From a bacterium (lineage in GTDB: Bacteria > Patescibacteriota > Microgenomatia > UBA1406 > GWC2-37-13): a DNA stretch of 64,000 bases. The translations under genes were made by a program, and so were the position numbers. The stretch spans positions 259,332-323,331 of the forward strand of contig JAKBEU010000002.1 of NCBI GenBank assembly GCA_021833625.1, read 5' to 3'. Positions 49,387-55,990 of the stretch are shown piece by piece. How positions within the stretch are numbered: the stretch's first letter is position 1; the number at the start of each line of letters is the position of its first letter. The notes beneath the pieces are model-generated. The model had not been told where the DNA came from, made no database searches, and saw nothing but the letters and a program-made list of their open reading frames with translations.

Positions 49387-49415
49387 TTGAAAAATCCGGG
49401 CTAATATCCTATAAT
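49387..49415 (+). promoter_or_regulatory. Near-consensus promoter (TTGAAA-17-TATAAT), ending 9 nt before ATG 49425
   Basis: TTGAAA at 49387-49392 and TATAAT at 49410-49415. Confidence 0.55.
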
Positions 49416-49424
49416 ATCCCTCTT

Positions 49425-50060
49425 ATGGGAGAAATTGGAACATTTTATTGTCCGGAAGAGCTGCTTGAAATCCCTAACAGGAATTTAAGGCGTCTCATCC
49501 TAAAGGATATTGAAGCGAAAGGCAAAAGTCCTACGTTTGTCGTGGGGGAAGAGCTTGTTAGCTTTCCAGTCTCTCACATGTCAATTCAGCAGTTCCATAG
49601 CTACAGAAAAACGCTTATCAAATGGGGAATCGACCCGGTTAATCCGCCTCAAGGAATTGACGGACACGGATACTCACTCATGTTGACTGAAGTGCTCCGA
49701 CACGTACTAAGGGATAGTAGCGACCTTATCATACGACAAACTCCCGCCTCAATGGATTTTCTAGAACCCAGTGATGCGAGAAAATGGGGTCCTTCCTCCG
49801 ATATATATATTGGTCAACGGTTGGGAAAAAATATAACTCCTCTTTTGCTTGTTGATGCAGTCGTTGGAGGGAATGAGCACGATACTGTAATTCATCCCCA
49901 GCTTAAGATACCTGTTGTCAGTATGCCGGGAAACAAATTGTTCCGTAACGGAAAAGACGCCGTCTTTAGTTTTGGTATGAGTTCATCTCCTCTCGACTTC
50001 GCGCAGTCTCTTGCCCAAGCTGCAGGTCCCAAAATCCTCAAACGACTTGAGGGGAGATAA
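49425..50060 (+). CDS. Hypothetical protein (no recognisable domain)
   Basis: A 211-aa ORF with its own strong promoter and no competing ORF. I recognise no family. Confidence 0.6.
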   Translation: MGEIGTFYCPEELLEIPNRNLRRLILKDIEAKGKSPTFVVGEELVSFPVSHMSIQQFHSYRKTLIKWGIDPVNPPQGIDGHGYSLMLTEVLRHVLRDSSDLIIRQTPASMDFLEPSDARKWGPSSDIYIGQRLGKNITPLLLVDAVVGGNEHDTVIHPQLKIPVVSMPGNKLFRNGKDAVFSFGMSSSPLDFAQSLAQAAGPKILKRLEGR

Positions 50061-50115
50061 ATATGAGAAAGTAATAATGAAATTTTTTACTGTAATTAAA
50101 CCTTTTAGTCTAAGT

Positions 50116-50124
50116 TGGTATAAT
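50116..50124 (+). promoter_or_regulatory. Extended -10 promoter (TGgTATAAT), ending 6 nt before ATG 50131
   Basis: TGG at 50116-50118 and TATAAT at 50119-50124. Confidence 0.5.
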
Positions 50125-50130
50125 TAAATT

Positions 50131-51198
50131 ATGGGATTTCCACATCCAGCGCATACAAAGAGTGAAATTAATAGAGCAGGAGAAACGTTAATAGATTCTT
50201 CTGCGTCTCCCGACGAGAGGACGCACGCATTAGAGGTGTTGAGTAACTGGCGTGCTTGTCATGGTTATCCTGTGAATACCTTTCAGAAGACTTTAAGGGA
50301 TAGATTAAAAAAAATTGGAAGCAGTGCTCTTGTAGCTCAAAGGCTTAAACGTTTATCGACAATTGAAGATAAGCTAAAAAGACAAGAACATATGAAACTC
50401 TCAACAATGCAAGATATAGGGGGTTTAAGAGCAGTTGTTAAGACGCTTGAAGAAGTGCGAAAACTTGAATCTCTTTATGTTTCTTCTGGAAAACAATTTC
50501 AGCATGAATTGGTCACAAATCGTATAAAAGACTATATAAATAGTCCTAAAATGGACGGTTATCGAAGCATTCATCTCGTATATAAATACAAAAATAGACT
50601 TCATCCACAATACGATGGGTTTTCTATAGAGCTTCAAATTAGGACGAGACTGGAACACGTATGGGCTACTGCAGTTGAGACCATGAGCATAGCTCTTAAA
50701 CAAGCTCTAAAAACAGGTGGTGGAGAAAAAAAATGGCGTGATTTTTTTGCATTGGCTTCCTCAGTCTTTGCATATATAGAAAAAAGTCCACCGGTTCCAC
50801 AGCATAGCCATATGAGCGAGAAGCAGACATATAAAGCGTTGGCCTCTATTGCAAAAGAAATAAAAGCTGTGGAGACAATGGGTGGTATAAATTTTGCTTT
50901 AAGTAGGGTAGATATGAGTGAAAGAAGAAGAAATTTTTATTATCATTTAATAGTGCTAAACTTTGGGAAAAGAGAAGTTAATATTCAATCTTTTCCAAAG
51001 ATTGCTTTGAGCCAAGCAAACAAAGCGTACACAAATGCAGAACTAGAAGCTTCTCAAAACGGTGATACTGATGCCGTTCTTGTTTCGGCAGGTAATTTTA
51101 ATATTTTAAAAAGGGCGTATCCCAATTACTTTCTTGATATGCGAGAGTTTGTAGATACAATAACAAACATCATAGAAAGTAGTAAGTCTATGTATTAA
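50131..51198 (+). CDS. Stand-alone RelA/SpoT-fold (RSH synthetase-domain) nucleotide pyrophosphokinase
   Basis: 355 aa. The synthetase motifs are QRLKRLSTIEDKLKR, DIGGLRAVV, DGYRSIHLVY and IELQIRTRLEHVWATAVE. There are no HD hydrolase, TGS or ACT regions. An unassigned C-terminal region of about 150 aa follows. Confidence 0.8.
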   Translation: MGFPHPAHTKSEINRAGETLIDSSASPDERTHALEVLSNWRACHGYPVNTFQKTLRDRLKKIGSSALVAQRLKRLSTIEDKLKRQEHMKLSTMQDIGGLRAVVKTLEEVRKLESLYVSSGKQFQHELVTNRIKDYINSPKMDGYRSIHLVYKYKNRLHPQYDGFSIELQIRTRLEHVWATAVETMSIALKQALKTGGGEKKWRDFFALASSVFAYIEKSPPVPQHSHMSEKQTYKALASIAKEIKAVETMGGINFALSRVDMSERRRNFYYHLIVLNFGKREVNIQSFPKIALSQANKAYTNAELEASQNGDTDAVLVSAGNFNILKRAYPNYFLDMREFVDTITNIIESSKSMY

Positions 51199-51201
51199 AG
51201 T

Positions 51202-51744
51202 GTGAGTATGAATGTAATCAGTAAGCGAATCAGTGCTGCTATGAGACATTTGTCTGAAAAGGATTACGAAAATGCACTTATTCAAATAACCATCGCAATT
51301 GATGCAACTGCAAAAAAGAAATGGCCAGAAAAAGGAGTGGGAACAAGAATACGCAATTTTATTAAAGAATATGAGTCTTTCATCTACAAAATGGCTTCAT
51401 CTGGTCATATTATTTTAATTTCTGGGAGGATTCTTATCCAGGGAAGAGAATTGTCAACGATAATTTATGACCTTGTTCGTTGTGCACTTCAACACGGAGA
51501 TGAATTGGGAGATCGTGTCATAATATTAGGAAACGCAAACACGATTGGAGTAAAAGATGGCAAAATCATAATAAATGTTGGTCACATTTATGGTTTATTA
51601 TTGTCTGTAATTTTAGATCCAACAAATATTTTAGAGCATTGTGATTCAAATCCTTTTTTACAAGAAGGCGATACTAGAATATTAGTGAATGAAATATGGG
51701 GCAATATGAATAAGTTTCGTGAATTGAGTAGTGTCCGAATTTGA
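51202..51744 (+). CDS. Hypothetical protein, possible HEPN-like domain (R-x4-H)
   Basis: 180 aa, starting 3 nt (GTG 51202) or 9 nt (ATG 51208) after the RSH stop. The N-terminal half looks helical (DYENALIQITIAIDATAKKK) and ends in VRCALQHG (nt 51478-51495). The fold assignment is speculative. Confidence 0.55.
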   Translation: MSMNVISKRISAAMRHLSEKDYENALIQITIAIDATAKKKWPEKGVGTRIRNFIKEYESFIYKMASSGHIILISGRILIQGRELSTIIYDLVRCALQHGDELGDRVIILGNANTIGVKDGKIIINVGHIYGLLLSVILDPTNILEHCDSNPFLQEGDTRILVNEIWGNMNKFRELSSVRI

Positions 51745-51826
51745 TTCAAAAGTTTACATCCTTATGTCACGTTCTGAGCACGATTCGACTTGTTCAACAG
51801 TTTGGCGTATAATTTGGTAACTTGTT

Positions 51827-53011
51827 ATGCCAAACAGCAAACTTTCTAACGCAAAAAAAGCAAAAAATGATGAGTTTTATACACAATATCACGACATCGA
51901 GAAAGAAATCTCTGCCTATATTGAATATAACCCCGATGTGTTTCGAGGCAAAACGGTACTTTTGCCCTGTGATGACCCAGAATGGAGTAACTTTACCAAG
52001 TTTTTTGCCCAAAACTTTGAAAGATTTGGCCTGAAGAAGCTTATTAGCACAAGCTATGCTGCTGATAGCAAGAATTATAAAAGTAGTTATCAGCCAACCC
52101 TTTTCGAAAAGCGTGATCAAAAATATGACAAAAATAAAACCACCAAAAACGGAAAGATTTTTACCTTGACACGTGACAAGACGGGTGATGGAAAGGTGGA
52201 TGTAAACGATCTGGAGTGGCAGTACTTAATAGGCGATGGCGACTTCAGGAGTAGTGAGATAAAAAAATTATGTGATGAGTCAGATATCATAATTACTAAC
52301 CCACCATTTTCTTTATTCCGAGTATTTTTAGCTTGGATTGTGGAAGCAAACAAGCAATTTGTAATAATCGGAAACAAAAATTGTGTCACTTATAAAGAAG
52401 TTTTTCCGCTAATCAAAAAAAATAAAATGTGGTCAGGGCGTACTGAGTGGAGCGGTGGTTTATGGTTTGAAACAAAAAACCCAGATGATGTCGACAAAAT
52501 TATTAATGGACTGAATATGAAAAATGTGTCGTCAGTTTGGTTTACTAATATTGATCACGGTAGGCGTCACGAGCATATCCCACTAATGACGATATCAGAT
52601 AATCTGAAGTACAGCAAACACAAGGAAATTAAAGGTAAAAAAATGTATGAGAAGTATGATAATTACGATGCTATAGAAGTACCATTTACTGATGCAATCC
52701 CGAGTGACTATAGTGGCGTAATGGGTGTTCCGATTACATTTCTTGATAAATATTCACCTGAGCAATTCAATATTTTAGGGGCCACTCAAAGAGGCTGTCA
52801 CGATGAAGTTCCTGATACAAAAAAGTATGATGATTATTGGGAGGTGAAACAAAATGGACAAAAGACTGGATCATCTGGTGGAAAAACAAATGAAAATGCA
52901 AATTTAATTGGCAATGACGGAAAAAAGAATTACTTTACAAATAAAGATGGTAGAGTAATTCAATCTGCATATCAGAGAATATTTATTAAACATAAGAAAA
53001 AAACAACATGA
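51827..53011 (+). CDS. DNA methyltransferase, NPPF catalytic motif (EcoRI-methylase-like family; N6-adenine or N4-cytosine)
   Basis: 394 aa with [14 protein letters not shown] at the N-terminus, [13 protein letters not shown] and [17 protein letters not shown] at 51808-51813 lies 13 nt upstream. Confidence 0.8.
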
Positions 53012-54213
53012 TAACAACCTTAAAAACAAAAATTACAATTAAAGATATTTGTAAGGGATTTGTTTACAATGAACTTGAAGGTAAGGGTTTATTTGGCTTG
53101 TCTGGCAAATTAACTATTCAGCCAGAGTACCAGCGCAACTATATTTATTCGTCAGGTGATGGCAAAAAAGAGATAGCTGTAATCAATTCAATCCTCAAAG
53201 ATTATCCTCTTGGTTTAATATATTTCAATAAAGTTAATGATGACGATCTAGAAGTTTTAGATGGTCAGCAGCGCATTACTAGCATCGGAAGATTTGTTAA
53301 TAATAAATTTGCTATCAAAGATGAAAACGGTATGGAACAATATTTTAGCGGCATTGCAGCTGACAAGCAGACTAAGATTTTAGAAACAAAATTACTCATT
53401 TATGAATGTGAGGGCAAGGAAAGCGAGATAAAAGAATGGTTTCGGACGATTAATATCGCTGGAGTTCCCCTAGCCAATCAGGAGTTGCTTAACGCCGTAT
53501 ATTCCGGGCCATTTGTGACACTTTGCAAAGAAGAATTCAGCAATAGTCAGAACGCAAATATCCAAAAATGGAGCACTTATATTTCTGGTAGTGCCGACAG
53601 GCAGGAATTTTTAGAACGGGCACTTGACTGGGTAAGTAAGGATTGGGAAGATAAGAATAATGATCCAGCACACACAAGACCAATCGGAAAATATATGAGT
53701 AAACGTCGTTATGAAAAAAATATTTCCGAATTAAAATTATATTTTAATGGCGTGATTAATTGGGTATCTAGCGTTTTTACAGATATCGAAAGTGAAATGC
53801 GAGGATTAGAATGGGGACGACTATATGAAGAATATCACAAGAAAACATATGATCCTACTAAAATATCTGCCGAAGTACATAAACTTTATAGTGATCCATA
53901 TATTAAAAATCGCAAGGGTATTTTTGAATATATTCTCGGTGGTTCTACCGACACAAAACTACTGGATGTGAGGGTTTTTGACGACGCAACAAAACGAAGT
54001 GCTTATGGAACTCAAACTGCTGAAGCTGAGAAGAAAGATAAATCAAATTGTCCATATTGTGCTATTGGGCATGATGTGAATAAAAATAAAATTTGGAAAT
54101 TGAGCGAAATGGATGCAGACCATGTGGCAGCATGGAGTAAGGGTGGTAAGACTATGGCTAAGAATTGTCAGATGTTATGTAAGTCGCACAACCGTGCAAA
54201 GGGAAACCGATAA
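53008..54213 (+). CDS. DUF262 (ParB/GmrSD N-terminal-like) domain fused to an HNH nuclease
   Basis: 401 aa with the DUF262 motifs IQPEYQRNY and LDGQQRITS. The C-terminal HNH reads CPYCAIGH ... [12 protein letters not shown] ... [15 protein letters not shown]. It has an ATGA overlap with the methyltransferase stop. Confidence 0.85.
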
Positions 54214-54287
54214 GAAATTACTTTTTATGATGCATTTACAACAAATGATGACCTGATTAGATTAGAGCAGTGGTAGTATTGTCGTTT

Positions 54288-54923
54288 ATGTATAACCTTG
54301 ATGAGTATAAAAGATTGACTTCAAAATATTGCTATTATGCTAGCTGGGCGATTTGGAATAAAGAAAAAGAAGACGACTCTTCAATTATTGATCAGCATCT
54401 AGACCAACTGCACTCAAAATTTGTATTAGTTGGACTAAATATATCTCATTCATTGGCTGGTAAAGCATGGTCAAACTTTCACGGCGGAAAGCACGATAGA
54501 AAATTGAAGTATGCTTGTAATGATACTAAGCTACGAGGATCTTACATAACAGATATTTTTAAAGATATTGATGAAGTGAGCTCAAAAAATCTTAAAAATA
54601 TTCTTACAGAAAAAGTGATAAATAAAAATGTTAGTTTCTTCAATCAAGAAATGAAGGATATAAAGATTAGTGGCGATACTCAATTTATTGTCCTTGGGAC
54701 ACCAACTTCTTTGCTTGCAGAATATTTTGACAAATATTTTAAACAAAAATACAAAAATCACATTATTTACCACTATCACCATTCTTACTATGGACTTACG
54801 GATAGAGAATGGGTTTGTGGGCTTTGGAAAAAATTGAGTATTAACAAAAATTTTGATATGGTCACAAAAAAAGAATCAGCAGTACACAAGGATGGGATGA
54901 TTTTCTTTCCGAGCAAAATCTAA
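54288..54923 (+). CDS. Hypothetical protein, possibly a degenerate UDG/Mug-superfamily fold
   Basis: The start is set at ATG 54288, 8 nt after TGgTAGTAT (54271-54279). The motif order VLVGLNISHSLAG ... GSYITDIFK ... FIVLG ... YHYHHSYYGL parallels Mug/TDG (GINPG ... NPSGLS) from memory. The family call is weak. Confidence 0.5.
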   Translation: MYNLDEYKRLTSKYCYYASWAIWNKEKEDDSSIIDQHLDQLHSKFVLVGLNISHSLAGKAWSNFHGGKHDRKLKYACNDTKLRGSYITDIFKDIDEVSSKNLKNILTEKVINKNVSFFNQEMKDIKISGDTQFIVLGTPTSLLAEYFDKYFKQKYKNHIIYHYHHSYYGLTDREWVCGLWKKLSINKNFDMVTKKESAVHKDGMIFFPSKI

Positions 54924-54958
54924 TGTCCTAGTTTTGGAATATTTGTTACATTTAATAC

Positions 54959-55312
54959 GTGGATACAAAAAACCAATACTCAACCAAAGTGGCTAAGGTT
55001 CTACAAAATGCTTTTGAAAAAAGAGGAATTAAAGTTGAAATGGAATTTTTTGATGGATACAAGCATGTTGATCTTTTTTTGCCAGAAGCAAAAATAAATG
55101 TTGAAGTAGACGGAGATCAACATCTGATAAATGCAGAACAAATTATCAGGGATTTCTCTAGAGAATATTATTCCGAAAGAGCAGGCTATCATACTCTGCA
55201 TATACCTAACGCAGAAGCTTTGAGTTATTGTGAAAAAATAGCTGATGCACTAAAGGAAATTGTTTTAATGTGTAAATTAAAGAAATTATCAACTCAAAAA
55301 TTGTCATCATAA
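54959..55312 (+). CDS. DUF559/Vsr-like restriction-endonuclease-fold protein
   Basis: 117 aa with a GTG start. The core HVDLFLPEAKINVEVDGDQH resembles the DUF559 D...E.D.G..H pattern. Confidence 0.6.
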   Translation: MDTKNQYSTKVAKVLQNAFEKRGIKVEMEFFDGYKHVDLFLPEAKINVEVDGDQHLINAEQIIRDFSREYYSERAGYHTLHIPNAEALSYCEKIADALKEIVLMCKLKKLSTQKLSS

Positions 55313-55345
55313 TTTCATAATAACCGTTTATAAATTATCACTAAT

Positions 55346-55564
55346 ATGAAAAAAATAGTAGTCGCTACAATAGGAATACTCGCGTTTTTGTATCTCGTTT
55401 ATCCAAGTTTTGGAATATTTGAACTGATTCCTGATAATATTCCATTTATTGGAAACTTAGATGAGGGAGGGGCAACTTTTCTTTTATTAAACGCGCTTTC
55501 ATATTTTGGTTTAGACTTAACAAACGTGTTTGGTTGGGGAGGAAAAACAGTAAAAAGAACTTAA
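55346..55564 (+). CDS. DUF1232 (YkvA-like) small membrane protein
   Basis: 72 aa with the motif ELIPDNIPFIGNLDEGG flanked by hydrophobic helices. Confidence 0.6.
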   Translation: MKKIVVATIGILAFLYLVYPSFGIFELIPDNIPFIGNLDEGGATFLLLNALSYFGLDLTNVFGWGGKTVKRT

Positions 55565-55591
55565 AGTTGCATATTGGTGTAATATAAAACT

Positions 55592-55990
55592 ATGAACACC
55601 ACATATTCCTGGTACTCAAAACTTATTAAACCGTCCTGGGCGCCGCCTTCTTTTCTTTTCGGTCCTGTCTGGACATTTCTTTATGTCCTGATTGTGATTT
55701 CCTTCAGCAGCGTGTTTGTAAAGTTATTCCAAGGGAAGATCCCCTTTGTTGTGGCATTGCCTTTTATTCTGAATCTCATTTTCAATCTTACCTTCACGTA
55801 CTTTCAGTTCGGACTGATGAATAATGAGCTTGCAGCGATAGATGTCATTTTGACGCTTATCACTCTTATTTGGGCGATGGTTGCGATATATCCGTATGCA
55901 CATTGGATCACCTATATGCAAATCCCTTATGTCATGTGGGTCTCGTTTGCAACAGTACTGCAACTTACCGTGACCTATTTAAACAGATAA
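55592..55990 (+). CDS. tspO: TspO/MBR-family tryptophan-rich membrane protein (short, apparently missing TM1)
   Basis: 132 aa. It begins directly at the conserved WYSKLIKPSWAPPSFLFGPVWTFLY segment. Confidence 0.8.
   Translation: MNTTYSWYSKLIKPSWAPPSFLFGPVWTFLYVLIVISFSSVFVKLFQGKIPFVVALPFILNLIFNLTFTYFQFGLMNNELAAIDVILTLITLIWAMVAIYPYAHWITYMQIPYVMWVSFATVLQLTVTYLNR

Follow-up and report, generated by a model that had tools for sequence, protein, structure and literature searches.

A fused CapRel-type toxSAS and a stand-alone PF27329 gene lie side by side in an apparent defence island of an uncultured Patescibacteriota bacterium

The 64,000-nt stretch of DNA analysed here as a whole, which we call the window, is part of contig JAKBEU010000002.1 (positions 259,332 to 323,331, forward strand; assembly GCA_021833625.1) of a bacterium of the Microgenomatia (Patescibacteriota). 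It holds two adjacent open reading frames (ORFs), gene 1 and gene 2, which a preliminary description had taken for an undescribed toxin or abortive-infection pair made of a RelA/SpoT-homologue (RSH) synthetase and a HEPN-like ribonuclease (RNase). In the present study we identify gene 1 as a full-length homologue of CapRel-SJ46, that is, a fused CapRel-type toxic small alarmone synthetase (toxSAS) and a new member of a characterised kind, and we assign gene 2 to PF27329, a catalogued and uncharacterised family. We consider it probable that the two genes are independent single-gene modules which happen to be neighbours in a low-GC defence island of horizontal origin.

Results

Gene 1 encodes a full-length CapRel homologue

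Both ORFs, the four RSH motifs of gene 1 and the codons of the R-x4-H motif of gene 2 are present in the translation, as had been described (Table 1). The RSH motifs comprise QRLKRLSTIEDKLKR (residues 70-84), DIGGLRAVV (95-103), DGYRSIHLVY (142-151) and IELQIRTRLEHVWATAVE (166-183). RelA_SpoT is the sole Pfam match in the product and no HD, TGS or ACT domain is detected by Pfam, in agreement with the domain content given earlier. A phmmer search against the PDB matched gene 1 to CapRel-SJ46 (7ZTB/9ERV) with an E-value of 3.9e-33, residues 8-342 of the query aligning with residues 15-364 of the chain; ordinary small alarmone synthetases (SAS) align at residues ~65-185 only, with E ~1e-8, in the PDB sequence search.

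The AlphaFold2 (AF2) model of gene 1, built on an alignment of 59 homologues, reached a predicted local distance difference test (pLDDT) of 90.7 and a predicted template modelling score (pTM) of 0.88, and shows the synthetase core followed by linker helices, a three-stranded part resembling the pseudo-zinc-finger domain (pseudo-ZFD), the hinge and a terminal helix. The top Foldseek matches of this model in the PDB are 7ZTB_B, 7ZTB_A and 9ERV_A (E 4e-20 to 4e-19, template modelling score (TM) 0.64-0.69, ~359 columns), and below these CapRel entries come SAS enzymes covering the N-terminal ~185 residues only. Analysing the secondary structure of the model in the sensor region it is possible to see strands at residues 271-277, 282-288 and 313-319 and a helix at 290-310, in agreement with the pseudo-ZFD topology described for CapRel (PMC9712102). 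The C-terminal ~150 aa, left unassigned in the preliminary description, are therefore the built-in CapRel antitoxin/sensor, as given by the phmmer alignment reaching residue 342 and the Foldseek match over the full length. A fused C-terminal antitoxin had been listed among the options found in toxSAS systems; what had been missed was its application to gene 1.

The YXXY motif's function and the functionally tested residues of CapRel-SJ46 are known (PMC9712102), and their counterparts in gene 1 are listed in Table 1. Every one of the 59 homologues of gene 1 keeps R71, R100, Y144, E167 and Q169, and in the YXXY hinge Y330 is kept in 58/59, P331 in 59/59 and N332 in 58/59, position 333 being Tyr in 48/59 and Phe in 11/59. 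Conservation peaks at the synthetase core and the hinge and is lowest at the pseudo-ZFD and the last helix, with a mean column conservation of 0.70 for the catalytic core vs 0.55 for the pseudo-ZFD region. CapRel's C-terminal part sets phage specificity (PMC9712102), and the variable C-terminus of gene 1 agrees with this.

Over its full length gene 1 corresponds to PDC-S33, a single-gene phage-defence candidate in PADLOC (E 3.4e-121), and to phrog_4773 in PHROGs (E 4e-105); the term 'PDC-S33' is absent from the literature searched. Homologues number 3,094 at E <= 1e-10, with a length of ~350 aa for almost all of the 120 listed. The closest relatives include metagenome-assembled genomes of Patescibacteria, and 134 stretches of viral contigs encode relatives. 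The matches to CapRel-SJ46 and PDC-S33 uphold the earlier view of gene 1 as a stand-alone RSH of toxSAS type with a likely role in phage defence.

CapRel-SJ46, a fused toxSAS and tRNA pyrophosphokinase from the Salmonella prophage SJ46, has 373 aa and can be aligned end to end with the 355 aa of gene 1. Both proteins are stand-alone, follow the same order of toxSYNTH, linker helices, pseudo-ZFD-like three-stranded sheet and C-terminal helix, and keep the ATP-site arginines, the G-loop tyrosine, the interface residues (A69, V316, L317 and A329 in gene 1) and YXXY, and for both the homologues are common in prophages or viral contigs. They differ in that A341 of CapRel-SJ46 is Ser in gene 1, the sensor region of gene 1 is divergent and the host is an enterobacterium in one case and an uncultured bacterium in the other; furthermore, the branch of gene 1 figures in PADLOC only as the candidate PDC-S33. 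The bicistronic toxSAS (PhRel/ATphRel, unfused CapRel/ATcapRel, FaRel2/ATfaRel2) have a toxin domain homologous to that of gene 1 and the same growth-arrest logic, but they need a separate adjacent antitoxin gene, whereas the antitoxin of gene 1 is fused and no neighbour is conserved. With an antitoxin/sensor already fused at its C-terminus, and the YXXY motif of that region intact, gene 1 needs no partner gene.

Gene 1 and gene 2 do not occur together in the other loci compared

The preliminary description had put forward a coupled RSH–HEPN pair, whose genes should then be found together in other genomes. In order to look for gene 2 relatives we ran the profile of the gene 2 family against six-frame ORFs of the loci of full-length gene 1 homologues, with up to 6 kb on each side in the genomic loci. 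None was found in 32 genomic loci with homologues of 37-57% identity from many phyla, even at E <= 10, nor in the 4 loci of the closest homologues (67-75% identical), nor in 80 loci on viral contigs, so that overall 0/116 loci hold a gene 2 relative within 4-6 kb. Among the closest homologues, the one with 72% identity (P0199) has a convergent umuC-like gene of the IMS family downstream, one with 67% (P0201; L050 204..2936) has an N6_N4 DNA methylase directly downstream, and another with 67% (P0200) shows no gene-2-like sequence across 580 nt downstream; the contig (L069) of the homologue with 75% identity (P0198) stops 72 nt past the stop codon and says nothing on the downstream gene. CapRel-type genes beside restriction-modification (R-M) genes, as in L050, thus recur without gene 2. 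An all-against-all comparison of the neighbours of gene 1 homologues found no family common to more than 3 of 33 loci.

The converse comparison gave the same outcome: in 27 loci of gene 2 relatives including the window, the gene 1 profile matches the window only (0/26 others). The coupled pair is not upheld by these counts, and a lack of co-occurrence in other genomes is among the outcomes that the preliminary description itself had named as refuting it. That gene 1 and gene 2 are adjacent here is probably a matter of chance in the way this island was put together. Gene 2 was also considered as an unfused CapRel antitoxin, a candidate that is ruled out with an hhalign probability of 0.13% against the CapRel family. 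A HEPN–RelA/SpoT fusion in the 2013 HEPN survey was likewise not borne out, the text of PMC3710099 being without the whole words 'RelA', 'SpoT' and 'ppGpp'.

Gene 2 is a PF27329 protein with a conserved R-x4-H motif

Two starts had been offered for gene 2, GTG 51202 and ATG 51208. The longer ORF (51202..51744, +, GTG, 180 aa) begins 3 nt past the TAA stop of gene 1; homologues and the database gene call favour the ATG, with a gap of 9 nt to gene 1, and not the GTG or the length of 180 aa. The precomputed PF27329 label is carried by the exact gene 2 protein and by all 49 relatives. This family is named after the Mycobacterium tuberculosis chromosomal gene Rv1289, and the titles and abstracts found for Rv1289 give no sign of a reported function. 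An exhaustive profile search (E <= 1e-3) recovered 1,093 family clusters at 50% identity, and nearly all are stand-alone proteins of 175-215 aa; FKBP_C and trigger factor are the sole significant extra domains, in one member each, and may be gene-call run-ons.

Conservation was assessed on 196 family members, each representing a 50%- or 90%-identity cluster. The motif residues are kept in nearly every member (Y87 in 191/196, R91 in 193/196, H96 in 195/196), as are N140 (187/196), W164 (177/196) and G165 (183/196); D32 is found in 176/196, with Glu in 6, and position 36 is Lys or Arg in 166/196. The conservation of R-x4-H is far beyond chance.

The AF2 model of gene 2 (pLDDT 91.1, pTM 0.89) has helices at residues 3-16 and 20-38, an insert at 44-80 formed by two short helices and a hairpin, and a helix at 82-95, after which come two strands, a helix at 124-136 and a small alpha/beta tail. 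The C-terminal half is thus mixed alpha/beta in the model, not beta-rich as had been supposed. HEPN domains are defined by a four-helix up-down core whose helices 2 and 3 are separated by an insert, and their motif consists of Rx4-6H where helix 3 ends and the next loop begins, together with an acidic residue plus x3-[KR] in helix 2 (Anantharaman et al. 2013, PMC3710099). In terms of model secondary structure only, the helix order of gene 2 and the insert between helices agree with this layout: R91 falls close to the end of helix 82-95 and H96 immediately follows that helix. D32-x3-K36 is within helix 20-38, Asp standing where HEPN typically has Glu. The motif noticed in the preliminary description is therefore real, conserved among homologues and placed as in HEPN domains. 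We regard HEPN membership of gene 2 as plausible, the balance lying close to even.

A Foldseek search of BFVD gave a single near-significant neighbour of the gene 2 model, A0A0H4TI24, an unnamed viral protein of 170 aa (E 5e-3, TM 0.51).

Gene 2 relatives are found in several defence settings

The neighbourhoods of gene 2 relatives are diverse. A methyltransferase and a HinfI restriction endonuclease lie 4 nt upstream of the relative in L005, and a XhoI restriction endonuclease and a methyltransferase 92 nt downstream in L010. In L058 (905..5558) the relative is located 242 nt downstream of Gabija, consisting of GajA (PADLOC E 9e-207) and a UvrD-type helicase (GajB), and in L061 (668..5852) it is followed by a Ymh-family HEPN gene (Pfam E 1e-18) and then by type I HsdR and HsdM. 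A GIY-YIG nuclease is adjacent in L007 and DUF4062 in L047/48; the remaining neighbours are S-adenosylmethionine (SAM) methyltransferases, an aminotransferase or nothing recognisable. Relatives of gene 2 are placed recurrently, though not obligatorily, next to unrelated R-M systems, Gabija and nucleases.

Two side observations concern these loci. In L061 two small genes of R-x4-H type stand ahead of one R-M system, and in two unrelated loci (L011 418..915, L063 942..1400) genes of PNPOx_N type (pyridoxamine-phosphate-oxidase-like) flank the gene 2 relatives.

The low-GC island

The island (Table 1) interrupts a mur/dcw cell-wall gene cluster, with murE and a Cu-oxidase_4/PgeF-like gene on the upstream flank and TspO followed by murC/murB/murA-like genes on the downstream one; no tRNA genes were found flanking it. 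Besides gene 1 and gene 2 it contains an R-M pair, an orphan ORF of 217 aa and an ORF of DUF559/Vsr-like type. The methylase and endonuclease genes share a 4-nt overlap and form a complete type II R-M pair (51827..54213), which starts 83 nt after gene 2. The defence-type island of the preliminary description is confirmed by this type II methyltransferase and restriction endonuclease directly downstream and by the drop in GC at ~50.0-55.6 kb. The stretch has the appearance of a small defence island, acquired horizontally, in which independent modules have gathered.

The ORF at 54270..54923 (217 aa), within the island, and that at 49425..50060 (211 aa), just 5' of gene 1, are without significant match in Pfam, NCBIfam, PADLOC and PHROGs. 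The latter has a GC content like that of the flanks, and the strongest promoter-like match in the region (49387..49415, 11/12) lies 5' of it. At the far end of the island the ORF 54959..55312 (117 aa) shows weak similarity to DUF559/Vsr-like endonucleases (E 3e-5) and a weak PADLOC match to mREase_II.

An extended -10-like sequence, TGGTATAAT, is located ~13 nt upstream of the ATG of gene 1. Other promoter-like sites lie at 51134..51161 (10/12), within the 3' end of gene 1 and ~45 nt ahead of gene 2, and at 51785..51813 (10/12), ahead of the methylase gene. The total of promoter-like sites is no greater than in shuffled sequence, and they are weak evidence.

Table 1. Features of the locus in window coordinates, and residues of gene 1 equivalent to tested residues of CapRel-SJ46
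Feature	Position	Strand	Basis or remark
Gene 1, fused CapRel-type toxSAS (toxin + antitoxin, one polypeptide)	50131..51198	+	ATG start, 355 aa, TAA stop; sequence and fold match to CapRel-SJ46
toxSYNTH (RelA_SpoT) catalytic core, residues ~63-190	50317..50700	+	Pfam RelA_SpoT residues 70-180, E 7e-18
Predicted pseudo-ZFD-like antitoxin/sensor region, residues ~259-322	50905..51096	+	Three strands, helix between strands 2 and 3 (model)
YXXY autoinhibition/neutralisation motif, Y330-P331-N332-Y333 (CapRel-SJ46 Y352-x-x-Y355)	51118..51129	+	phmmer alignment
Gene 1 R71 (CapRel-SJ46 R79)			ATP/adenine coordination; printed alignment, PMC9712102
Gene 1 R100 (CapRel-SJ46 R116)			ATP/adenine coordination; printed alignment, PMC9712102
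Gene 1 Y144 (CapRel-SJ46 Y155)			G-loop tyrosine; printed alignment, PMC9712102
Gene 1 A69 (CapRel-SJ46 A77)			Interface; printed alignment, PMC9712102
Gene 1 V316-L317 (CapRel-SJ46 V338-L339)			Interface; printed alignment, PMC9712102
Gene 1 A329 (CapRel-SJ46 A351)			Interface; printed alignment, PMC9712102
Gene 2, stand-alone PF27329 ('Rv1289') member, HEPN-like candidate	51208..51744	+	ATG, 178 aa; precomputed Pfam label
R-x4-H motif in VRCALQHG	51478..51495	+	R91/H96 from ATG; R93/H98 from GTG
EcoRI-like adenine DNA methyltransferase, first gene of type II R-M	51827..53011	+	Pfam EcoRI_methylase E 1.2e-114; PADLOC MTase_II E 2e-81
GmrSD_N (DUF262)-HNH restriction endonuclease	53008..54213	+	Pfam GmrSD_N E 1.2e-20, HNH E 1.6e-6; PADLOC REase_II E 2.2e-81
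Low-GC island	~50000..55600 (approximate bounds)	.	GC 0.30-0.37 inside vs 0.44-0.48 flanks

Discussion

We propose, by homology with CapRel-SJ46, that in the uninfected cell the C-terminal pseudo-ZFD region of gene 1 would fold back on the synthetase, the YXXY hinge Y330-P-N-Y333 lodging as a plug between R71 and R100 in the ATP site. Upon infection a phage protein would bind the variable C-terminal domain and keep the enzyme open, and the opened synthetase would then pyrophosphorylate tRNA 3' ends, with arrest of translation and abortion of the infection. Gene 2 may act alone as a metal-independent HEPN-like RNase in accessory or fallback defence, a role that we put forward less securely and in which it would be comparable to solo HEPN genes located inside R-M operons.

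Such solo genes, e.g. AbiJ solos, AbiU2, Ymh and ApeA, have been described (Anantharaman et al. 2013, PMC3710099). They share with gene 2 a small size, a stand-alone character, R-x4-H at the core-helix end, what appears to be an equivalent acidic-x3-[KR] in the preceding helix and a sporadic occurrence next to diverse R-M systems. Gene 2 differs from these families in the lack of detectable profile or significant fold similarity, the Cys after the Arg, the extra beta elements, the C-terminal alpha/beta extension and the many members outside defence contexts. A further step would be to see in PF27329 an unrecognised, structurally divergent clade of HEPN-type RNases, stand-alone abortive-infection or fallback effectors settling promiscuously next to R-M, Gabija and further defence systems; we mention this tentatively, as a minority possibility.

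The locus could instead be read as a dedicated two-gene toxin or abortive-infection system, working through covalent control, an alarmone signal or neutralisation. The two genes share a strand, stand 9 nt apart and lie within one low-GC island, the R-x4-H motif is conserved, and the arrangement is kept on contigs carrying the same locus. On paper the locus also recalls MNT-HEPN, in that a nucleotidyltransferase gene of the Pol-beta superfamily stands beside an R-x4-H gene. In MNT-HEPN (MntA-HepT, a type VII toxin-antitoxin system) the adjacency is strictly conserved and the nucleotidyltransferase AMPylates the HEPN protein. Here, in contrast, the adjacency is seen in one lineage only and the nucleotidyltransferase is a self-contained CapRel enzyme, provided with its own antitoxin/sensor and an intact YXXY motif. 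Gaps of 1-12 nt are routine between unrelated genes across the window, and therefore the 9-nt spacing is no evidence of coupling; gene 2 may moreover be transcribed independently from the promoter-like site in the 3' end of gene 1, for what this weak evidence is worth. Co-occurrence is nil on both sides, also for homologues of 67-72% identity with adequate downstream sequence. The literature holding both terms, as titles and abstracts plus one text, describes no toxSAS–HEPN pairing, and a dedicated pair would therefore be new; we judge it very improbable. No more credible is the capture of gene 2 in this lineage as a second effector downstream of CapRel. Co-transcription of the two genes in this genome is possible, yet it would be no evidence of a shared mechanism.

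For gene 2 itself two other explanations have to be weighed, each of which we hold to be unlikely while granting it a real share. It might be tied to the adjacent R-M system as an accessory RNase or regulator acting when restriction fails, a loosely linked third gene that would travel with R-M cassettes. Three of the closer relatives with enough context (in the window, L005 and L010) adjoin type II R-M systems of three unrelated kinds and a more distant one is beside a type I system (L061), and there is the precedent of the solo HEPN genes just cited; however, R-M is present in only ~4 of 18 assessable loci, a small sample, gene order and orientation relative to R-M vary, and the other loci hold the assorted neighbours listed above. 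Alternatively, gene 2 could be a small housekeeping or regulatory protein, neither defensive nor a nuclease, whose conserved Tyr, Arg, His and Asn bind a ligand. A large and mostly stand-alone family named after a mycobacterial chromosomal gene, the many metabolic neighbourhoods, the lack of matches for gene 2 in PADLOC and PHROGs scans, and the negative outcomes given below for viral contigs, plasmids and HEPN folds and profiles would suit such a role. Against it stand the several independent defence settings (R-M four times, Gabija, GIY-YIG), neighbourhoods as variable as is typical for mobile defence genes, and the combination of R-x4-H at the core-helix end with D-x3-[KR] in the preceding hairpin, which is the active-site arrangement of HEPN.

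Several observations weigh against our reading of two independent defence modules and are gathered here. As to gene 1, its identity to CapRel-SJ46 is ~28-29%, and the model deviates from the CapRel crystal structures by a root-mean-square deviation of 9.5-10.7 A, a value that fits an open crystal form compared with a predicted closed one; furthermore, what we propose on its substrate (tRNA vs adenine nucleotides), its closed state and its trigger is inferred. As to gene 2, the HEPN-like character proposed in the preliminary description fits the helix layout and is not confirmed by the fold comparison, in which Foldseek against the PDB gives nothing at E <= 0.001; the best non-significant folds are nevertheless HEPN proteins, namely 4NQF (E 4.2, TM 0.32/0.38), AbiV 9BJ7 and Csx1 8Y7F (E 8-10). 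HEPN families are absent from the Pfam/NCBIfam scans of 149 members and two consensus sequences, Csx28 scoring E 0.09 for the gene 2 protein only. Comparison with Ymh HEPN by hhalign yields 7% probability on a generic helical-hairpin motif. In PDB profile searches with the family the sole match is a helix-G-D-x-E-x-A-L hairpin in designed helical repeat proteins, and the Ymh match is therefore devalued. Directly behind the Arg, 157/196 members, gene 2 among them, have Cys and 32/196 have Asn, the norm in HEPN being N/D/H. No relatives of gene 2 were found in viral contigs (IMG/VR, sequence-pattern scans) or plasmids, about half of the assessable neighbourhoods are without an obvious defence link, and a solo RNase toxin without an evident inhibitor is hard to explain. 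Finally, the persistence of the gene 1–gene 2 arrangement on contigs with the same locus speaks for the pair, and a functional interaction specific to this lineage is possible and compatible with non-conservation.

An RSH–HEPN pair, if true, would have represented a new class of immunity based on nucleotide signalling or covalent control, and the evidence against it spares experimental effort on a chance adjacency. Gene 2 belongs to an orphan family of considerable size, whose motif is invariant and enzyme-like and whose members turn up repeatedly in defence islands; this makes the family a modest lead. Gene 1 indicates that CapRel-type fused sensors, with all mechanistic residues intact, reach small-genome uncultured bacteria; it supports the view that the capsid-sensing, tRNA-pyrophosphorylating mechanism is a general one and offers divergent sensor domains for the discovery of triggers.

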